A stretch of DNA of 64,000 nt, taken from contig JACAEL010000038.1 in NCBI GenBank assembly GCA_013388835.1, forward strand, positions 171 through 64,170, in the 5' to 3' direction. The stretch comes from Candidatus Thorarchaeota archaeon (lineage in GTDB: Archaea > Asgardarchaeota > Thorarchaeia > Thorarchaeales > Thorarchaeaceae). Positions 4,472 through 50,521 of the stretch are shown here, piece after piece. Below the pieces are notes generated by a model. It ran no database searches and was not told the DNA's origin. It saw nothing but the letters and a program-made list of their open reading frames with translations. The translations under genes were made by a program, and so were the position numbers. The number at the start of each line of letters is the position of its first letter. Positions within the stretch are counted from its first letter, which is position 1.

Positions 4472-4798
4472 CTACTCCCTCTTCTTCAGTCTTCTACCTG
4501 CCGAAGAGATGGCGTCACGTACTCGTTCTGAACGCTCGATGAGCTTCACAACGTAGCTTCGTCCAACCTTGTGCTTGAGCACTGTCTGGGCACGAAGTGT
4601 GTCCTGTATCTCGAGTATCGTGGCGACCACCTTGTCGACAGTGCGGCGGTCGATCCCAGTCTTTCGTGCTATCGCAGCTATCGACAGCGATGCGTCCTCA
4701 CCCAGATCCTTCAGCACCTTGAGGACTTCCCTCATTGCATCCGGAAACGCCATGCGCGGCTCTGGCGGTACGACTGGAATCGACATGGTATATCGCAT
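4472..4798 (-). CDS. Winged-helix transcriptional regulator (archaeal HTH family)
   Basis: 108 aa. The HTH-like segment LSIAAIARKTGIDRRTVDKVV is followed by a basic wing and C-terminal helix. Confidence 0.5.
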   Translation of the reverse strand: MRYTMSIPVVPPEPRMAFPDAMREVLKVLKDLGEDASLSIAAIARKTGIDRRTVDKVVATILEIQDTLRAQTVLKHKVGRSYVVKLIERSERVRDAISSAGRRLKKRE

Positions 4799-4993
4799 AT
4801 CTCAAGCGTATCAGAGCATATATACATTACTGTGTACACATTATTATCGCAGTATTACTGTGTACATGTAGAGGGGACGCAGTCGATTTCCCTTACGTGG
4901 CCCCAATTACCGATCACGGTTCTAGCCGGGCTTCAGAGCCAGTTAAAGCTAGCTACAATGAATGGTAATGACAGAGTGTCTGTCACACGACCG

Positions 4994-5758
4994 TCAGAAG
5001 GCCAGCCAACCGCCATCGACGGCTAGGATGTGCCCGGTTATGTAACGGGCATCGTCGCTTGCAAGGAAACAGACAGCACCACGAATCCACTCGGTCTCAG
5101 CGAGCGTTGGGAGAGCGGTCCTTGGACGTATGACCTGCTCTCGAATCTCGTCACTTGCGAATGCCTCCCTGGACATTGGCGTCGGAAAGAAGCCGGGAGC
5201 AATACCGTTCACGCGTATACCATACTGCCCAAGCTCGATTGCAAGAGCCTTTGTCATCGTGATGAGCCCACCCTTGGCGGCGTAGTAGCCCACTTCTGTG
5301 AACCTGGTTCCCCCGTAACCAAATACGGAGGCGATGTTGATAATCGATCCTGACCGTTTCGGTATCATTATCCGGGCAGCCTCACGGGAGGCAAGGAAGG
5401 CAGAGGTGAGATTCACATCTATGACAGTCCTCCAGTCCTCCAGTGTCTGTTCGACCAACGGCTTGACAATGAACATGCCTGCGTTGTTGACCAGAATGTC
5501 GACCGTCCCGAGCTTGTTAACGCAGCAGTTGACCATCTCACGGATATCAGACTCACGTGTGACATCTGTCACAAGTGGGATTGCCTTGACACCATAGCGG
5601 CTCTCGAGCCTGCCTGCTAGGTTCTCGAGCAGTGTCCTTCTTCTTGCAGCCAAGACAATGTTCGCTCCAGACTCTGCCAGGGCGATGGAGAACTGCTCAC
5701 CCAGACCGGCGGATGCTCCAGTCACTATAGCAGCCTTTCCTGCCAGGTTGTAACTCAT
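4994..5758 (-). CDS. SDR-family oxidoreductase (3-oxoacyl-ACP reductase-like)
   Basis: TGASAGLGE Rossmann motif, NNAG, catalytic YxxxK (YYAAKGG), 254 aa. Confidence 0.85.
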   Translation of the reverse strand: MSYNLAGKAAIVTGASAGLGEQFSIALAESGANIVLAARRRTLLENLAGRLESRYGVKAIPLVTDVTRESDIREMVNCCVNKLGTVDILVNNAGMFIVKPLVEQTLEDWRTVIDVNLTSAFLASREAARIMIPKRSGSIINIASVFGYGGTRFTEVGYYAAKGGLITMTKALAIELGQYGIRVNGIAPGFFPTPMSREAFASDEIREQVIRPRTALPTLAETEWIRGAVCFLASDDARYITGHILAVDGGWLAF

Positions 5759-11928: not shown

Positions 11929-14088
11929 ATGTCCGAAAGACTCCCAGCTCGTCTGGCACTCGTGCTGTTTCTCTGCATGTCGGCGGTAATCTCGTTCACT
12001 GGGGCTCCGCCGTCCCAAATACCACGGGATGCAACAGTCCTCAGCAACGGTACTGAACCGATAATCTACCGCGGGGGGACAATTGACACTGTAAGAGTCA
12101 TTGCGTACGCCAGTCTGGAAGACGCCCTCTCTGCGGTCAATGATGGTGAGGCGGACGTGTTTGGACTGATGGTCGAGAGGGAGCACTACACGCTAATAGA
12201 CTCATACCCCAATCTTGAGAGACAGTGGTCACACGACACAAGGGCGTGCGCGATAGTCCTGAACGCCCAAGCATACCCCTTGCATGACTCGCACCTGAGA
12301 AGAGCAATAGCTTTTGCAGTCAACAAGACCATGATCAGGGACGTCATGGGAACGGTGGATCTGGCGGACTTCGCAGTCCCCTTGTCAAGCGAGTACTCTC
12401 CCGAGTCCAAGTACGGAGGGCTATTCTACGACAGGGACATCGCGCACGCAAACGCCGAACTTGGTATGGCTGGCATCTTGGATGTTGACGAGAATGGGTA
12501 TGTCGAAGCACCGAACGGGAGCAGTCTTACCCTGAGACTGACATACCCATATGATGTCTACGGCATGAACGAGACCGCGCAGCTGATATCAAATGACCTT
12601 CTGTCAGTAGGAATCAACAACACACTCGTCCCGCTTGATTCGGTTTCGCTCCAGACAGGTCTGGCCAATCACAGTCTGGACTTCGAGCTTGCTCTGTGCC
12701 ACATGGAGTTTCCCCTCTATGATGCTGACTGGGCCATCAGAACATTCCACTCGTCAATGGTGTCGGTCGCGGGAGAGAACATCGCGCGGGTGAGTGACCC
12801 TCAGATCAACTCGATGGTCGGACGTCTGTTGGCAAACTCGAAACTCTCTGCAATGCACACACTCGTCTACGAGGGGCTCCAACTCATTAGAGACCTATGC
12901 CCTATCATACCACTGTTCTTCTACAACTGGCTGTCGGTCTACTCCACAGCCAACTTGGATGGATGGAACAATCACACGAGCGGCGGAGCATATTCTGTCT
13001 GGAACCCTGTGACCCTCGCACCGAAGACGGGAAAGCCAAGTCAGATGACCGTTGCAGTGCTCCCAAGTTTCTTCTCGGACTTCTTTCGCTCCTTGAATCC
13101 GTTATATCAGTGTAACAACGTATCGTGGACGCCAATTGATTCCAACTGGTACTACAGGCGGCACTTCAATCCATACCTCCTAGTCTATGACTCGCTGACT
13201 GCGACACACCTAGACGGTACTGCAGTACCTAGGTTGAGTACATACTGGGAGGTTCAGTTCAGTGACCAGAAGCCAGACATCCGTCCGCTGACCTCCAGGG
13301 CGGTCTTCTACTGCGACCCGGCAGCAAACTGGACCGATGGGACCCGGCTGACCGCACAGGATGTGAGGTTCTCAATGGAGCTCTATCGAAACCTGTCAGC
13401 CATCGAGGATGCAGAGATCATCGAGTCGGTCAAGGTCACCGGGAGTCACACAGCTGGTGTCAATCTCAACAGCACTCTGATGTACCACTACAGAGTCCTA
13501 GGTTCACTTCCTGTCCTGCCACTGCACATCATGGGTGGCATGAATAGTACCCAGGTCAGCGCATGGAATCCCACTCCGGCTGAAGCGATTGGCTCAGGAC
13601 CATACAAGTTCGCTGAGCTTGTTCTTGGTGAGGAGCTTACACTGACCCGAAACACGGGATACTATCCTCAGCTGGACATGGAACCTCCAAGACTCACACA
13701 GATCTACCTGTCGCCCCAGAACCCCATCCCTGCTGAGACTGTCACTGTACGAGCATATCTGGATGACCGAAGCAGGATAGCAAATGTCTCTCTGAGCTGG
13801 ACTAGTCATGTGGGAACTCTGAATTTCACAACAGAAACGACAATGCAGGAGACCTCTCAGGGTTACGTAGGCATCATTCCCGCCAGCATCACGTCCTCTT
13901 CTGTAAACTACAGTATTCGGGCGACTGACATCTGGGGCAACTCGGCAGTTCTAGCTACAGGGTTGTACCCACAGGCTTCGAATGGCGGTATCGGGGCACC
14001 TGACCTGACGATTGCCGTACTCGTCATGGGTGCAATCGGACTGGCTGCAACTGGCCTCGTCGCTCGACACGCGAGGCAGAGAGGCTAG
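11929..14088 (+). CDS. Extracellular solute-binding protein family 5 (Opp/Dpp-like) with extra C-terminal domain and C-terminal TM anchor
   Basis: Signal peptide from Met at 11929 (MSERLPARLALVLFLCMSAVISF). The SBP_bac_5-like core (…RRAIAFAVNKTMIRDVMG…) is followed by many N-glycosylation sequons and a C-terminal helix IAVLVMGAIGLAATGLVARHARQRG. The ORF is open from 11827. Confidence 0.7.
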   Translation: MSERLPARLALVLFLCMSAVISFTGAPPSQIPRDATVLSNGTEPIIYRGGTIDTVRVIAYASLEDALSAVNDGEADVFGLMVEREHYTLIDSYPNLERQWSHDTRACAIVLNAQAYPLHDSHLRRAIAFAVNKTMIRDVMGTVDLADFAVPLSSEYSPESKYGGLFYDRDIAHANAELGMAGILDVDENGYVEAPNGSSLTLRLTYPYDVYGMNETAQLISNDLLSVGINNTLVPLDSVSLQTGLANHSLDFELALCHMEFPLYDADWAIRTFHSSMVSVAGENIARVSDPQINSMVGRLLANSKLSAMHTLVYEGLQLIRDLCPIIPLFFYNWLSVYSTANLDGWNNHTSGGAYSVWNPVTLAPKTGKPSQMTVAVLPSFFSDFFRSLNPLYQCNNVSWTPIDSNWYYRRHFNPYLLVYDSLTATHLDGTAVPRLSTYWEVQFSDQKPDIRPLTSRAVFYCDPAANWTDGTRLTAQDVRFSMELYRNLSAIEDAEIIESVKVTGSHTAGVNLNSTLMYHYRVLGSLPVLPLHIMGGMNSTQVSAWNPTPAEAIGSGPYKFAELVLGEELTLTRNTGYYPQLDMEPPRLTQIYLSPQNPIPAETVTVRAYLDDRSRIANVSLSWTSHVGTLNFTTETTMQETSQGYVGIIPASITSSSVNYSIRATDIWGNSAVLATGLYPQASNGGIGAPDLTIAVLVMGAIGLAATGLVARHARQRG

Positions 14089-18209: not shown

Positions 18210-18501
18210 AGCTATGACTCAGGAGGTCAAGGCACTCATCGATACCAACTACGACTCCATTGTCATCTACGTGATGAAGTCCGAGGCATCCGCTAAGAAA
18301 CAGCTCATCGGCCTTGACCTGTCACTGCGAAACCTCATCGTCTGACTTCCCAAGACCTTTATGAATGACTTGCATCACCGGAGGCCTTTGAACACCTCTC
18401 CCTGCAGCGACCACATAAGCCTTATCTGGAGAGAAGAAGTAGAGAAGCACCGGTTCCAATCAGACTAGAAGTAGGGTTGAAATAAGGACAAGAAAGATGA
18501 A

Positions 18502-18597
18502 GTAGAAGAAGTGGAGTCACAGAAGATGAGTTCACACGACAAGAAGGAAGTAGAAGAAGTGGAGTCACAGAAGATGAGTTCACACGACAAGAAGGAA
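18502..18597. repeat. Perfect tandem duplication, 2 x 48 bp (gtagaagaagtggagtcacagaagatgagttcacacgacaagaaggaa)
   Basis: Read directly from the sequence: 18502-18549 is identical to 18550-18597. It lies in a purine-rich non-coding stretch between genes. Confidence 0.9.
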
Positions 18598-19140
18598 GTC
18601 GCCGAAGGGGCCTGTGTCAATTGCGCAGTGTTCCTCTTTGTGATTCTTGTCTTCTCGATTGCCGCACTTGTTCTGTAGTGTCGCGTCTCAGGAGGGGCTT
18701 GACTGACATTCCTGATTGACCCGCCACTCTTAGTGGGTTTCAGCATGTTGTCGTGCTGGATAGGAGAGAGGTTTCCGACAAGGACAAGAGCCCCGATTGG
18801 TACAGCACTGGCCATCTTCTCTCTGTGTGTGATAGTCTTCACAAGCACCTCACTCTATCTCAACCTATCATACATGAACTGGTTCTGGATGCCTTTCTCG
18901 CCGGCGGTGACATCGGGAAGAGACCTCATGATCAACTCGGGCATATTCCATTTCGAGTCTGTGAATACCGCGGGGCTCATCGATGCACTTGCGGCCATAC
19001 AAGTGCTCCTATATCCGCTATGGACATACCTCGGGCTGAGGCTCTGGCACCAGCTGAAGAAAAAGCAGCCAGCCAGTTCATCATAGAGTGATAGTGATGT
19101 CAGCAGGAGAGTCCGCCACCTGACTCAGGACAGACCGGCG

Positions 19141-22003: not shown

Positions 22004-22786
22004 CTAGGTGGACTCGGCAACATCCTGTAAAGAGGCACCTTTCGTCGCCACGAAGCAGCCCATGTCGCCAAGTCGGTTGAACACGATGTGACTGAAGCCC
22101 GCCCTCGTTATCAGTTCCTCCCACTGGCTCCGCGTCTTGAGCATCCAGTAGTAGAGAGGGGTGGCATAAAGGAGGCCGGTGGGTTCTCTGAGGACTTCGA
22201 TGAGCATCAGATGACCCCCGGCTCGCAACACACGTATTGCCTCTCTCAGGGCCTTGAGCTTCATCTCGTCACCTCGGAGGTTGTTGAAGACATTCGCCCC
22301 AGCGAATATGTCGAAGCTCTCATCATCATACTGAAGGGATGTGATATCCCCACTCTCAAAGCGCACACGGTCTCCGACCCCCTCCGCAACCGCATTTCGC
22401 ATCGCTCTCTCAGGGGAGTTGCCGGGGAGCTCGGCGGTCTCCCAGATGTCTATACCTGTCACAAGACCGTGTGGCAAGACTCGCGCCAGACCCACTGTGA
22501 GCTTTCCCAGTCCGCAGCCAAGGTCCAGCGCAGACTCCGTGCCGCGGAAGGGTAGCAGCTTTGAAACATCGAATGCTCGCCTCTGGTCAAGCCGACTCAA
22601 TGAGACAAGGTAGGTGAGCAACAGACAGACTCCCGAAACGGTCAAAAAGACCCCAAGGAGTGCGAACCCGATCCATGTGCCTAGGAGTAGTGTGACAACC
22701 GTTCCTGCCACTATCAAACACGCAACCGTGCCTATCATCCAGTTTTGCCCATAGTTGCCATAGTGGGGCGTCATGCGCTTGCTCAT
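22004..22786 (-). CDS. Class I SAM-dependent methyltransferase with N-terminal two-TM anchor
   Basis: Motif I ALDLGCGLGKLTVGLA after two N-terminal hydrophobic helices. Confidence 0.75.
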   Translation of the reverse strand: MSKRMTPHYGNYGQNWMIGTVACLIVAGTVVTLLLGTWIGFALLGVFLTVSGVCLLLTYLVSLSRLDQRRAFDVSKLLPFRGTESALDLGCGLGKLTVGLARVLPHGLVTGIDIWETAELPGNSPERAMRNAVAEGVGDRVRFESGDITSLQYDDESFDIFAGANVFNNLRGDEMKLKALREAIRVLRAGGHLMLIEVLREPTGLLYATPLYYWMLKTRSQWEELITRAGFSHIVFNRLGDMGCFVATKGASLQDVAEST

Positions 22787-25273: not shown

Positions 25274-25681
25274 CTACTGTTCTGGTCGGCCCGTACGCAA
25301 CACAGGCTCTACTCGTTTCTCGTAGAAGTAGCCCACTGATGAGTAGACAGTATAGAGCCCCCTCCTCCTTCCTATGATGAGTCCTGCCCGTTCAAGTATT
25401 GACAAGTGATGCGACATCGTGCTCTTTGACTTCTTCACTATGTGTGCCAGGACCGTCAGACAGTACTCGCCCTTGCCCAAGATGTGATACAGCTTGTATC
25501 TCAGTTCATGGCCTAATGCGGCATGATACAATATCTCTCGCTGGGCATTCTTGTCCTTGTCGAGATCTGACAGCAGCCGCCTATGGTCTGAAACAAAAGC
25601 CTCGAAGTCTGTGTCTATGCCCATTGCGTCCAGACACGCCTGAAGTCTATGCACTTCATCAACACCTTGCCTGTAACACAC
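25274..25681 (-). CDS. ArsR/SmtB-family transcriptional regulator
   Basis: HTH LRYKLYHILGKGEYCLTVLAHIVKKSKSTMSHHLSILERAGLI; true start may be the internal Met at about 25621. Confidence 0.7.
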   Translation of the reverse strand: MCYRQGVDEVHRLQACLDAMGIDTDFEAFVSDHRRLLSDLDKDKNAQREILYHAALGHELRYKLYHILGKGEYCLTVLAHIVKKSKSTMSHHLSILERAGLIIGRRRGLYTVYSSVGYFYEKRVEPVLRTGRPEQ

Positions 25682-27195: not shown

Positions 27196-27716
27196 AGCAC
27201 ATCAACAACTGCCAATCCGACAAGAAATGAATAGTCCTAGACAAAGCAAGTCGCTTGAGAAGAAAACTACCGGCATGACTGATTCTGTGCACACCGATTG
27301 TGATGGGAGTATGGTCCCACTTTTTGGGCTTCCCAGTCACCGATGGTACAACGTTCATCTCTAGTTGGACGAAGTGGACATTGGTATGCCAACAGGATCC
27401 GTCCCGGAGCGGCTCTCGGAAGGCGCACACCTCGAGGACTCGTCAGCTGTCGGGCAGACCTCGGGAGTCGTGTGACCGCACAATGACACATATGCATCGA
27501 ACTGCGCATGTCCAAGACTGCCCGACCGCGCGGCAGCAGCTACCTACCCCCTGAGTGACGGCCCGCCCCCTCTATGTGGGACCGATGTGTTCCTTCGACT
27601 GGGACCACCCGGTACGGCACGCACTCTGACGATGCAGCACGGCCAGTTGTCCAGTCCGTTCATTCACCAGCGCGTGGATTATATACTGTCTGTTGTCAAT
27701 AGGTGTGAGGATTCGT

Positions 27717-28625
27717 ATGAGTACTGACGCCGACCAGATCTACCAGATGCTGTTCGAGAGAGAGGTTGTCAGTTCCGACGAGATCGTAGCGGTTGTCCGG
27801 TCAGTGCTGGGGCGTGATGTCTCCCGCGACTACGCCTTCCGCAGGTACGCCACCCCGCTCATCCGGAGCGGAAAGCTGAGACGGATCCGGAGGGGACTGT
27901 ACTATGCGCCTGACAACAGACGTCCCTATGCGAACACGGACCTCGTAGCGTGCAGTCTTCGGAAGTCCGCCTTTCTCGGTTACCAGGACGCCGCCGAGTT
28001 GTGGGGCGCAGTCTACTTCATGACCACGTCCCGTGTCAAGGTCTGTGTGTCAAGAAAGGACCGCTTCAAACCGTTCATCTACGGACCGTACGAGTATATA
28101 CCGGTGATAGTGAGGGACTTCAGTTCCGTTGTGGCCTCCAAGAAGGGACGCGGACTGAAGAAAGAGGTGAGGTTGACGAACAGACTGCGCACCTTCATCG
28201 ACTGTGTCAAGCGGCCCGACCTGGTCGGCGGCTGGGGTGGCGTCTACAACACCCTCGGGAGGCTGAGAGGCGTAGACCTCGACCAGCTGAGAGAGGAGGT
28301 CATTCGCTCAGGGAACCAGATGCTGATTCGCAAAGTCGGTATGATTCTTGAGTTGGTTGGCAATGACTTTGCGCGCTTCGACGAGGCGAAGCTCAATGAG
28401 GTGCTCGATGACCTCGAGCGGCGCGTCACCAGCAGACCAATGCGACTCACCAACTGTGAATACGAGATCCGGTTCAACGAGCCCTGGCTGCGGGACCTCC
28501 GTTGGAACCTGTACCGTCCCCCAAGGTTCGAGGTGATCGTGAGGGGGCGCGTCGCCATGGACGACCCCATCATGGGACTGTGGGAGGATCGACTTCCGAA
28601 ATCCATGCGCCCCGGCTCAGCGTAG
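27717..28625 (+). CDS. AbiEi-like wHTH domain protein (type IV TA antitoxin-like N-terminus), solitary
   Basis: The N-terminus IYQMLFEREVVSSDEIVAVV…RSGKLRRIRRGLYYAPD resembles the AbiEi_4 wHTH signature. The TATA-like attatatac sits about 30 bp upstream of ATG 27717. No AbiEii-like nucleotidyltransferase follows. Confidence 0.4.
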   Translation: MSTDADQIYQMLFEREVVSSDEIVAVVRSVLGRDVSRDYAFRRYATPLIRSGKLRRIRRGLYYAPDNRRPYANTDLVACSLRKSAFLGYQDAAELWGAVYFMTTSRVKVCVSRKDRFKPFIYGPYEYIPVIVRDFSSVVASKKGRGLKKEVRLTNRLRTFIDCVKRPDLVGGWGGVYNTLGRLRGVDLDQLREEVIRSGNQMLIRKVGMILELVGNDFARFDEAKLNEVLDDLERRVTSRPMRLTNCEYEIRFNEPWLRDLRWNLYRPPRFEVIVRGRVAMDDPIMGLWEDRLPKSMRPGSA

Positions 28626-46778: not shown

Positions 46779-48719
46779 ATGACTTTGAAGAAACATCTCG
46801 TAGATGAACTCACGGAGGTATTTGGTGAGAGGGTCGTCACTGCCAAGCACGAGCTCATCATCCATGCCCAAGACGTTGGCGCTCTGCCCAAGCAGGTCGG
46901 CTGGCTGATGAACACGAATCCGGATGCCGTAGTACGACCCCAGAGCGTGGAGGAGGTCCGCGCGCTCTATGCGTTTGCCAACAAGCACCACATCCCGCTC
47001 ACACCCAGAGGTGCTGGCACTTCCGGTTATGGTGGTGCTATCCCGCGTAACGGCGGCGTGGTCGTAGACATGCGGCTCTTTGACAAGGTGCTGTCAGTGG
47101 ATTCGCAGGCTCTCACTGTCACTGTACAGCCGGGAATCTCTTGGGCGAACCTTCAGCATCACCTGAACCGAATGGGACTGGACTTGCGCTGCTACCCGTC
47201 ATCGGGCATCTCGGCTACTGTTGGCGGCTGGGTCGCCCAGGGCGGCGATGGTATTGGTTCCCTCAAGTACGGGAACATCAATCAGAATGTAGTTGAGGTC
47301 GAGGTTGTCCTGCCGAATGGTCAGGTGGTGACCAGCCGTGACACCGACCTGTTCTGTGACACTGAAGGTATTCTTGGGATTATCACAAGGGTGACGCTCA
47401 AGATTAAGCCGCTCACTCGCATAGTCCCCATTGTGGTCAGCTTTTCTGAGAACTACCTCATGACATTCGCAATCGAGAAGATACTTGAGAGAGCCCCGCT
47501 CCCAATGACGATGAAGTTCGAGGAGTCCAAGTACACGGACCTCAAGAAGCAGGCATGGGAAGGACACGGACCATTCCCGTTCCCGGTCGACCACTGCACC
47601 CTTCTGGTCGCATTTGATGGTCCAGACGAGGAGATTGAACGAGGTCTCGAAGTGGTCCGCGAGGTCACTACCGAGTACAAGGGCCGCGTCTATGACAGGC
47701 AGGTGTCGGAACATGAGTGGGCCGAGCGATACTACCCGATGAGAATCAAGAAGCTTGGCCCCACACTCGTGGTCGGTCAGGCCTTTGCACCCCTGGAGAG
47801 ACTCGAGGCCATCCTTGACGACTTCCAGTTCGAACAGGCCTCGGCAAGAGCTGGCATTGACGGATACGTGAACTCCAAGACCGGCGTCACAATGATGGGC
47901 TATTTCCTGGAGGACGAGCGAAGGACCTTTTTCATGCTCTCGTGGGTGCAGAGCTTTGTGATCTTCAAGATTGCACAGCGACACGGTGGTCATCCCCACT
48001 CCACAGGGATATGGCTCGCAAACTATGCGCCAGTCTACTTTGGAAGACGGAGGCTCGGGCGTATCAGAGCGGCGAAACTCAAGTATGACCCCAACGAGGT
48101 GTCCAACCCCGGGAAGGTGTTCGCATACTGGCTGCCGCTCATACTCCGTATTGGCAAGTACTTCATGTGGATTGCCTTTGACCTCTTCCGAAACGGGTTT
48201 GGCCGCATGGCCCCCATACTCTTGAAGTGGCTACAGAATCTGCCGCCACTCAAGTGGGTGTTGCGCTGGGGACGCGCGCACAGCCCGTGGCCTGTGCAAT
48301 ATGGACTGGGATGTTGCATGGCCGATGGAGCAGCGGCGGTGGCTTCGAGATGGGACCTTGAGAGGTTCGGCATGCTGCCGCTCTTCGGACCCAGGCAGTG
48401 TGATGTCCTGTGGATATCGGGGTCACTCACAAAGAAGATGGCCCCAAGGCTCAAGCGTATCTACGAACAGATGCCCGAACCCAAGTATGTCATCTGTTTT
48501 GGGCAGTGCGCTGCGAGTGGTGGCCTCTTCTGGGATGGATACTCGCTCGAAACAGACCCGGAGAAGATCGTGCCTGTCGATGTCTACTTGCCCGGTTGCC
48601 CACCGAAGCCGGAGGACTTTGTGAGGGCACACCTCATTCTGCAGAACAAGATACGGGCAGGCACCACTCACTGGCAGAGGCGATACGAGAATCAGGACGC
48701 AATGGGAGTCATTCAGTAG
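46779..48719 (+). CDS. In-frame fusion of FAD-linked oxidase (GlcD/D-lactate dehydrogenase type) and NADH-quinone oxidoreductase subunit B (NuoB, N2-cluster subunit)
   Basis: Residues 1-480 carry the FAD PCMH domain (PRGAGTSGYGGAIP…NPGKVF, the usual C-terminus of GlcD-family proteins). There is no stop. After a roughly 55-aa hydrophobic/amphipathic linker comes the NuoB core (WGRAHSPWPVQYGLGCCMAD…CFGQCAASGG…YLPGCPP with the four N2-ligating Cys). The ORF is continuous, 646 aa. Confidence 0.8.
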   Translation: MTLKKHLVDELTEVFGERVVTAKHELIIHAQDVGALPKQVGWLMNTNPDAVVRPQSVEEVRALYAFANKHHIPLTPRGAGTSGYGGAIPRNGGVVVDMRLFDKVLSVDSQALTVTVQPGISWANLQHHLNRMGLDLRCYPSSGISATVGGWVAQGGDGIGSLKYGNINQNVVEVEVVLPNGQVVTSRDTDLFCDTEGILGIITRVTLKIKPLTRIVPIVVSFSENYLMTFAIEKILERAPLPMTMKFEESKYTDLKKQAWEGHGPFPFPVDHCTLLVAFDGPDEEIERGLEVVREVTTEYKGRVYDRQVSEHEWAERYYPMRIKKLGPTLVVGQAFAPLERLEAILDDFQFEQASARAGIDGYVNSKTGVTMMGYFLEDERRTFFMLSWVQSFVIFKIAQRHGGHPHSTGIWLANYAPVYFGRRRLGRIRAAKLKYDPNEVSNPGKVFAYWLPLILRIGKYFMWIAFDLFRNGFGRMAPILLKWLQNLPPLKWVLRWGRAHSPWPVQYGLGCCMADGAAAVASRWDLERFGMLPLFGPRQCDVLWISGSLTKKMAPRLKRIYEQMPEPKYVICFGQCAASGGLFWDGYSLETDPEKIVPVDVYLPGCPPKPEDFVRAHLILQNKIRAGTTHWQRRYENQDAMGVIQ

Positions 48720-49180: not shown

Positions 49181-49480
49181 TCACAGCTCCTTGAGCCACG
49201 CATAGGCGGAGAAACTCAGCAGCAGGCCAAATGCAATCCACGCGAAGAGGACTATACCCGGTCCCCAGTCGAACAGCGTCAGGTCCAAGTAGCCGTGCAC
49301 CCCTGTCACAGTCCCCGAGAACATCGTCATCAGTGTCCGGGAGGACCTAGTCTTCAAGTGAGCCAACAGAAAGGTCGACAGAAACAGGATGCCGCCCGTG
49401 CCAAAGAAAACCATGTGAAAGAATGTCAGTTCCACTGTTGATGCGAGCGCATACCAGAAATAGGAGCCCACGAATGCCAT
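49181..49480 (-). CDS. Small integral membrane protein (about 99 aa, 3 TM)
   Basis: Start taken at Met MAFVGSYFWY (49480). The longer ORF to 49687 reads through the direct repeats and is rejected. Confidence 0.45.
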   Translation of the reverse strand: MAFVGSYFWYALASTVELTFFHMVFFGTGGILFLSTFLLAHLKTRSSRTLMTMFSGTVTGVHGYLDLTLFDWGPGIVLFAWIAFGLLLSFSAYAWLKEL

Positions 49481-49496
49481 TCCACTGAGCAGAACG

Positions 49497-49606
49497 GTTT
49501 CAATCCCCGCGATATGGGATCTGTTTCTGCGACCAAGTATCTCTTGGCACGGGGCGTTCCTGTTTCCATGTTTCACTCCCCGCGATATGGGATCTGTTTC
49601 TGCGAC
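49497..49606. repeat. Two 37-bp direct repeats (gtttcaatccccgcgatatgggatctgtttctgcgac / gtttcactcc…, 1 mismatch) separated by a 36-bp unique spacer; minimal CRISPR-like array or regulatory direct repeat
   Basis: Read directly: repeat 1 at 49497-49533, spacer 49534-49569, repeat 2 at 49570-49606. Repeat length, spacer length and the GTTTCAAT 5' end are CRISPR-like. No cas genes are in the window. Confidence 0.5.
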
Positions 49607-50038
49607 ATGTCGGCCCCCGAACAGGCAATCTATGGTGTTGGAGTACGGATAGGCCTGCATTCTGGGGTGAGTTGTGTGCATCATCATTCTGCAAGGTCGC
49701 TTATAAACATCCCCACGCAGTATCGGTGGATGTCAAGTTGGGGGAAGGCCGAAGGGGTGAGGAAGGTCTACTGTCCCCTAGGAAAGGTTGTACAGACCGC
49801 GTCTTGTCAGCTGCTGCCGTCTCTCTCAATTGCTGACGGCTCGGGCAGGCTGTTCGAGAAGGCAGACAATGACCGTCCGGCACTCGCAGGACAGTCCGAA
49901 GCGTTTTTATGAAGCATGTCGGTAGCGGACGCCTAACGCCGGCATCCAAGGGACTCGACACAGCGCGGAGAGACATCGGGACAATGAATGTCTTGAGGGT
50001 CAGTCTGCTATTGCGTCGCCCAAGGAGAATCTGACGAC

Positions 50039-50521
50039 ATGAGCCTGACTGGTCTGCAGTGGAGTTCAACTGAAATGCGCCTGTTCATCGACTTCATCCC
50101 GGTCCTCCTGTGGGCCATATTCGCCATGGTACTCGTTGTCATAATGCTGTTGGCCTCTTGGGTGTTGCGCCCCCACGTCCTTCAGAACTCGGAGAAGACC
50201 TCGACCTACGAGTGTGGTGAGGAGCCTGTGGGCCCTGCGAGGATCTCGTATCCATACAACTACATGGTCTACACCGTGCTTTTTGTTGTGATCGACGTCC
50301 TCGGAGCCTTCCTCTACATCGTGGCGGCATCCACACTTCGTCTGTCAGTACCGGTGGTCTGGGAGGTGCTTCTGTTCGTAGTGCTGTTGGCCAGCGGTGT
50401 CGGCTACGCGATGAAGGTTCTGCCACATACGTCCACAGCCGGGAGTGAGACTCTGGCCCTGTATCGTGCGGCCAAGGCTGCATACATCGAGGGAGAACGC
50501 GAATCTGTGAGGTCAGACTGA
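50039..50521 (+). CDS. nuoA: NADH-quinone oxidoreductase subunit A (NuoA/Nqo7)
   Basis: 3-TM protein with YECGEEP motif. Confidence 0.85.
   Translation: MSLTGLQWSSTEMRLFIDFIPVLLWAIFAMVLVVIMLLASWVLRPHVLQNSEKTSTYECGEEPVGPARISYPYNYMVYTVLFVVIDVLGAFLYIVAASTLRLSVPVVWEVLLFVVLLASGVGYAMKVLPHTSTAGSETLALYRAAKAAYIEGERESVRSD

Follow-up and report, generated by a model that had tools for sequence, protein, structure and literature searches.

Positions 49497 to ~49735 on the minus strand of the analysed DNA, a 64-kb stretch of a Candidatus Thorarchaeota contig (hereafter ‘the window’), most likely constitute a complete minimal CRISPR locus of the type I-D family, consisting of a leader, a repeat, one spacer and a second repeat, and being an orphan here. 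Since both the repeat and the leader are homologous to those of arrays adjoining cas genes, we consider the unit 49497-~49735 a complete minimal array. The array, the membrane-protein gene that it abuts and the sequence up to the nuo operon comprise the following features:

49181..49495, minus strand: body of a membrane-protein gene, 104 codons plus stop (alignments, HMMER, synteny).
49181..49687, minus strand: annotated ORF NWF95866.1 (HXY34_06955), 168 aa, starting inside the leader.
49497..49533, minus strand: R1, the distal CRISPR repeat, GTCGCAGAAACAGATCCCATATCGCGGGGATTGAAAC; predicted to form a 6-bp hairpin and ending 3′ in the canonical ATTGAAAC.
49534..49569, minus strand: the single spacer, 36 nt, ATGGAAACAGGAACGCCCCGTGCCAAGAGATACTTG, unique in the window.
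49570..49606, minus strand: R2, the leader-proximal CRISPR repeat, GTCGCAGAAACAGATCCCATATCGCGGGGAGTGAAAC, with a single mismatch to R1.
49607..49735 (~130 nt), minus strand: CRISPR leader with TATA box (conserved blocks, profile match, TATA spacing).
49736..49895, no strand assigned: ~160-nt segment between the leader and the nuoA promoter, without homolog.
49896..49910, plus strand: nuo-operon promoter motif (BRE/TATA-like), CGAAGCGTTTTTATG, identical in relatives.

The two direct repeats span 37 nt each (49497-49533 and 49570-49606), start 73 nt apart and differ at one position. On the plus strand, R1 reads GTTTCAATCCCCGCGATATGGGATCTGTTTCTGCGAC; R2 carries a C in place of the A at repeat position 7 (A7→C) and is equal to R1 everywhere else. 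This 37/36/37-nt succession of repeat, spacer and repeat bore out the geometry described in an initial annotation of the DNA—two 37-bp repeats with one mismatch around a unique 36-bp spacer—including its coordinates, and it combines what defines a CRISPR, namely at least two near-identical repeats of 23–47 nt and a unique spacer of like length. Allowing up to three mismatches, the 37-mer occurs at these two sites only in the 64 kb, and none of 100 shuffled sequences contained any match. A third, degenerate repeat was sought in the flanks, where the best candidate matched at 19/37 positions, the level of chance. A tandem duplication was ruled out, as the duplicated part comprises 37 nt only and not the 73-nt unit. 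So was an assembly chimera joined via the spacer: path switching within the spacer cannot yield the junction between R1 and the gene body, and the synteny of both flanks likewise speaks against a chimera.

The biologically meaningful orientation of the array is the minus strand, on which the repeat starts with GTCGC, continues through a predicted hairpin and ends in the ATTGAAAC handle. In types I and III, an end of the ATTGAAAC type is known to become the 8-nt crRNA tag upon Cas6 processing. The predicted hairpin, with 6-bp arms GATCCC/GGGGAU and an 8-nt loop, lies 5′ of the GAAAC tail and folds at -7.3 kcal/mol, with a z-score of only -1 for an RNA this short; since neither the stem arms nor the handle vary within the repeat family, there is no covariation to assess. 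The mismatch in R2 is a T→G change on the minus strand; it affects position -7 of the handle, whose 8 nt would serve as the crRNA 5′ tag. Rfam returned nothing in the window at the gathering threshold; the top match for the repeat, below that threshold, was CRISPR-DR7 (a 37-nt model) on the minus strand.

GTDB representative genomes, JGI metagenomes and IMG/VR contained no exact 25-mer of the repeat. A looser pattern—handle, stem and GCGAC end—was scanned against the genome collection and metagenomes. The former yielded only distant bacterial family members (35 nt long in Deinococcota, 37 nt in Planctomycetota) and chance singletons. The metagenomes led to GTTTCAATCCCCTCAATATGGGATCTGCTTCTGCGAC, a repeat identical to that of the window at 34/37 positions and found in arrays of up to 40 repeats. 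The three substitutions between the two fall into the loop and the 5′ part, leaving stem arms and handle unchanged. Wherever flanking sequence was available, arrays with this family repeat adjoin cas genes, as at the following loci:

L038: array adjoining Cas1, Cas4 and Cas10d, with a Cas2-sized ORF between Cas1 and Cas4.
L041: array adjoining Cas10d, Cas7d and Cas3d.
L043 (GCA_052584815.1, contig JBNGVJ010000017.1, Thorarchaeota MAG): array beside a full type I-D operon.

The L043 operon encodes Cas1, Cas2, Cas4, an 881-aa large subunit, Csc2, Csc1, a Cas3-like helicase, a 286-aa Cas6 and Csa1. Cas1 of L038 shares 99% identity with a Cas1 from Thorarchaeota, and the named matches ranking next are from Thor- and Lokiarchaeota. 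Based on this Cas1 affinity and on the cas context of the arrays with 34/37 identity, we assign the window repeat to a Thorarchaeota type I-D repeat family. Literature searches for the repeat sequence, and for the combination of Asgard, type I-D and Thorarchaeota, found no paper.

A 15-mer match prompted us to align the sequence upstream of R2 (in minus sense) with the leaders of L041, L038/L043 and the related contigs L025 and L027. The blocks TTATAA, TGCAGAA, GAAAGC..TTATCC and TTCGG..CC proved common to the window and the family leaders, and the window’s TATA box (TTATAAA at 49702-49708 on the plus strand) is located 100 nt upstream of R2, as compared to a TATA-to-first-repeat distance of 97–98 nt in the family. 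An nhmmer profile of five leaders, from which the repeat had been left out, gave a sole match in the window with E=1.1e-6, against E=1 for the runner-up; it spans minus-strand positions 49719-49640, directly upstream of R2 and in the right orientation. In pairwise comparison, the L041 leader came closest (82/118 identical, ~5.8 sd above shuffles); identity to the known leaders is only ~60–70%. Flank homology to the array loci is confined to the leader, with nothing beyond it, and tblastn revealed no Cas1 remnant next to the leader. The 34/37 repeat family and the homologous TATA-containing leader together substantiate what had initially been described, from the letters of the window, as an orphan mini CRISPR-like array.

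Placed beside the Thorarchaeota type I-D arrays of L043 and of metagenome contigs (Ga0164310_*, Ga0153916_*), the window array has in common with them the 37-nt repeat (34/37 identical), the predicted hairpin arms ATCCC/GGGAT, the ATTGAAAC handle, a homologous leader with a TATA box ~100 nt upstream, and a spacer within the size range of 35–45 nt. It differs from them in having one spacer only and no adjoining cas operon, in three repeat substitutions, and in sitting over the 5′ end of a gene in a housekeeping neighbourhood. Small leader-bearing arrays remote from cas genes also occur in L025 and L027. In the latter, a Thorarchaeota-type contig, a 4-repeat leader-bearing array (12340-12874), which is not beside cas genes, converges after 77 nt on a second array with the same repeat in opposite orientation.

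PADLOC and Pfam scans of the 62 ORFs of at least 80 aa in the window detected no core cas gene, in line with the initial claim that none lies within 64 kb. The array is thus an orphan within this span, and cas genes adjoining the array, as in a complete CRISPR-Cas locus, are not found in the window. A PADLOC match to Csa3/CasR was rejected as a cas gene: the protein in question (25274-25681, minus strand) is a stand-alone winged-helix (wHTH) protein of 135 aa that matches the DNA-binding part of the Csa3/CasR models only (E=7e-12), is devoid of a CARF domain and is encoded 24 kb from the array. Among other elements of the window are a 310-aa protein with strong matches to AbiEi, an abortive-infection antitoxin/regulator (27693-28625, plus strand; E=6e-23), a 260-aa protein that the PADLOC mad2 model matches in part (22004-22786, minus strand; E=3e-11), and a 48-nt tandem repeat at 18487-18599 (2.1–2.3 copies, 95–100% matches over two overlapping TRF rows) that falls inside the minus-strand ORF 18465-18848.

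The gene next to R1 encodes a small multi-pass membrane protein (~116 aa) of a conserved Thorarchaeota/Asgard family, for which HMMER retrieved 21 homologs, mostly of 113–126 aa. Family members share the N-terminus M-x8-12-FFYYL, which is missing from the window gene: homology to the family starts at codon 49495-49493, directly after R1, and the gene is without a native start, its ~13 first codons and a TATA box or promoter of its own. We compared five related loci (L001, L002, L019, L020 and L021). In all five, the order is a fusion gene, a ~150-aa plus-strand gene, a 116–117-aa minus-strand membrane-protein gene and nuoA, the last two being separated by 150–210 nt that contain a divergent TATA-like pair. 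Neither the repeats nor the CRISPR module is present at any of these loci. Synteny between window and relatives holds on both sides of the array, and homology breaks exactly at the end of R1. As judged from these alignments, the CRISPR module has replaced the promoter and the ~13 first codons of the membrane-protein gene.

Regarding the promoters of the relatives, four of the five loci feature a compact divergent pair, with TAT(A/T)TAA(C/T) for the small gene and GAAG(C/T)GTTTTTAT for nuoA spaced 25–30 nt apart; the two boxes are ~130 nt apart in L001. The window has kept the nuoA half of the pair alone. In the closest relative, L002, whose fusion protein is 83% identical, a stop or frameshift divides the ortholog of the small membrane-protein gene into two ORFs (4781-5344, minus strand), suggesting the gene to be dispensable or error-prone in some lineages.

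The annotated 168-aa ORF runs in frame through R2, the spacer, R1 and one extra C at 49496, between R1 and the gene body (111 nt in total), and on into the gene body. By our estimate, chance would produce such an in-frame, stop-free read-through in a few percent of cases; selection for continued expression of the protein from the leader promoter may account for it. NWF95866.1, listed as a ‘hypothetical protein’, should accordingly be understood as a membrane-protein gene that lost its 5′ end to the CRISPR module. The initial annotation had taken this long minus-strand ORF for an artefact of translating the repeat, which is only half correct: the C-terminal 104 residues are a real conserved membrane protein. 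It had also stated that RNRSHIAGIETV appears twice, which is not true of any single ORF: with an offset of 73 nt, not divisible by 3, the two copies fall into different reading frames. Similarly, the array had been placed 17 bp upstream of the small gene. While this is indeed the distance to the ATG at 49480, that codon specifies an internal Met and is not the gene start, and the array abuts the truncated gene.

On the other flank, the ATG of nuoA (assigned by its Pfam match) at 50039 lies 433 nt from the array, matching the ~430 bp given initially. The nuoA promoter motif GAAGCGTTTTTAT, which is conserved in relatives, is found at 49896-49910 of the window, where it delimits the disturbed region on the far side. 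The segment between leader and promoter motif (49736-49895) had no homolog in the relatives or the array loci and contained no TATA-like element for the small gene. Partly overlapping this segment, positions 49726-49776 on the plus strand matched the Rfam model of sR30, an archaeal C/D-box sRNA, below threshold (19.7 bits versus a gathering threshold of 38; E=0.012), with imperfect box motifs.

At 36 nt, the spacer is within the 35–45 nt range of the family. A search of the spacer against viruses, as had been proposed at the outset, covered exact 20-mers in IMG/VR viral contigs and blastn of GenBank phages, and neither returned a match. Within the window, the best partial target matched 22/36 positions, the level reached by shuffled spacers. 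CreA/CreR-type crRNA-like regulatory RNAs (Haloarcula CreTA; cas-regulating RNAs) lie inside cas operons and have a pseudo-spacer that partly matches a nearby promoter. The window array resembles CreTA/CreR in that the unit is sized for a single crRNA and one repeat is slightly degenerate; however, no cas operon is near and no partial target exceeds the shuffle level, and a CreTA/CreR-like regulatory mini-array was rejected on both counts. As a separate observation, the first 8 nt of the spacer (49534-49541, minus strand) read ATGGAAAC, one mismatch away from the ATTGAAAC handle, and come straight after the mutated R2 handle AGTGAAAC; none of 82 family spacers is within three mismatches of the handle.

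In the scenario we favour, the leader TATA box at 49702-49708 would drive a minus-strand transcript, the pre-crRNA, that presumably starts near 49680. A cognate type I-D Cas6, if encoded elsewhere in the genome, would cleave every repeat at its hairpin base and release one crRNA composed of the 8-nt tag AGUGAAAC—carrying the T→G change—the 36-nt spacer and a 3′ repeat remnant. Loaded into an I-D Cascade (Cas10d/Csc1/Csc2) encoded elsewhere, this crRNA could mediate DNA targeting in trans. Those same Cas6 cuts would also detach the start codon from the read-through mRNA that encodes the membrane protein. As to its origin, recombination or duplication most likely brought in the module as a leader plus repeat, to which the single spacer was added later. 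Provided that the array is genuine, we lean only marginally towards an active over an inert array; counting against the scenario are the lack of cas genes in the 64 kb, the negative searches described above for the exact repeat and for a spacer target, the leader identity of only ~60–70% and the position of the sole repeat mutation, in the very handle that would tag the single crRNA.

It is conceivable, though distinctly less probable than the reading given above, that the locus is an inert relic, i.e. a true CRISPR fragment that has no matching cas system or is not processed, with the knock-out or re-wiring of the small gene as its sole effect. The lack of cas genes in the 64 kb is compatible with this, as are a single spacer without a match in the targets searched, the handle mutation in R2, and the loss of the host gene’s own start and promoter. 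However, the repeats differ at only 1/37 positions and the leader keeps both its conserved blocks and their spacing, which argues for recent origin or maintenance, and type I-D loci with the same repeat family are present in Thorarchaeota.

Further-reaching interpretations of the locus appear improbable to us. These hold that the host membrane-protein mRNA depends on the CRISPR leader and is cut by the Cas6 pathway—in which case expression of this nuo-adjacent membrane protein would be coupled to CRISPR activity—and/or that the spacer represents the displaced first 12 codons of the gene, the locus being a self-targeting fossil resolved in situ. The second proposition, for itself, we likewise judge unlikely. 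In minus-strand sense, the spacer runs ATG GAA ... TAC TTG, translating to METGTPRAKRYL. Taking out 38 nt, R1 and 1 nt more, fuses METGTPRAKRYL with VLLSGMAFVGSYFW into a 116-aa protein whose N-terminus resembles the family (e.g., ...FFYYLVLLIGM in relatives); if the 36 nt were indeed the gene’s own first 12 codons, the gene in an insertion-free allele would begin ATGGAAACAGGAACG.... The arrangement would then record self-targeting or repair and an escape from autoimmunity, with the native copy deleted or the flanks converted from the array, and would show how autoimmunity is resolved and how new arrays seed in genomes.

In favour of such a self-derived spacer, the R2 mutation creates an SD-like GGAGTGA 5–6 nt before the spacer ATG, and the spacer adds 7.6 bits against the family HMM, a value equalled by 3/281 stop-free translations of real family spacers; this statistic is, however, post hoc (~p 0.01), and another frame scores nearly the same. 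The junction is, moreover, off by one nucleotide, no closer relative exists for comparison, and to our knowledge there is no recombination or integration route that puts repeats on both sides of a native segment. Taken together, these points are weakly suggestive of a self-derived spacer.

Off-target Cas1-Cas2 integration of a foreign 36-mer, with duplication of a native 37-nt sequence, would be expected to leave exactly a 37-nt duplication around a spacer-sized insert, but this origin is effectively refuted, because bona fide arrays next to cas genes contain homologs of both the repeat (34/37) and the ~130-nt leader, and nothing like the repeat exists at the site in relatives. Just as implausible are non-CRISPR regulatory direct repeats, as the initial annotation had also entertained, or a protein-coding repeat of the nuo/small-gene promoter region: although the site is a divergent promoter region inside an annotated ORF, the two copies are read in different frames, their homology is to CRISPR arrays, and the element—looked for as a conserved promoter segment in the five related loci—is absent from all of them, even though the true nuoA promoter motif is conserved there, which led us to reject this reading.

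A CRISPR locus of the orphan type, which we prefer as the explanation of the window, belongs to an already known kind of feature. Isolated arrays have been described as CRISPR2 of Enterococcus faecalis (PMC4580645) and as a type I-F array in P. aeruginosa (PMC13142298); like the window array, they are leader-bearing and remote from cas genes, with trans use by a cognate system being possible. Those arrays contain several spacers and are intergenic, whereas the window array has one spacer, overwrites a gene start and forms part of a read-through ORF. Sulfolobales viruses carry mini-CRISPR arrays with host-type repeats (PMC6858448) that, similar to the window array, comprise one or two spacers and have no cas genes. 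They reside on viral genomes and target competing viruses, in contrast to the window array, which is chromosomal, has syntenic flanks and whose spacer lacks a viral match.

Read in this way, the locus would be a further, well-documented case of an orphan CRISPR array of minimal size with its own leader, from an Asgard archaeon, and tie one repeat and leader family to the type I-D systems of Thorarchaeota. The repeat and leader signatures may be used to assign metagenome CRISPR contigs and their spacers, and hence viruses, to Thorarchaeota.

A last observation concerns the fusion gene of this neighbourhood. The 646-aa protein encoded at 46779-48719 on the plus strand combines a GlcD-like FAD-linked oxidase (FAD_binding_4 plus FAD-oxidase_C) with a NuoB domain (Oxidored_q6). 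A protein of a Candidatus Thorarchaeota MAG is 100% identical to it, in support of this host. The operon ORFs that were checked included no separate nuoB. The GlcD-NuoB fusion is located upstream of the nuoA-J-K-C-D... operon and has orthologs of 73–83% identity in many Thorarchaeota.
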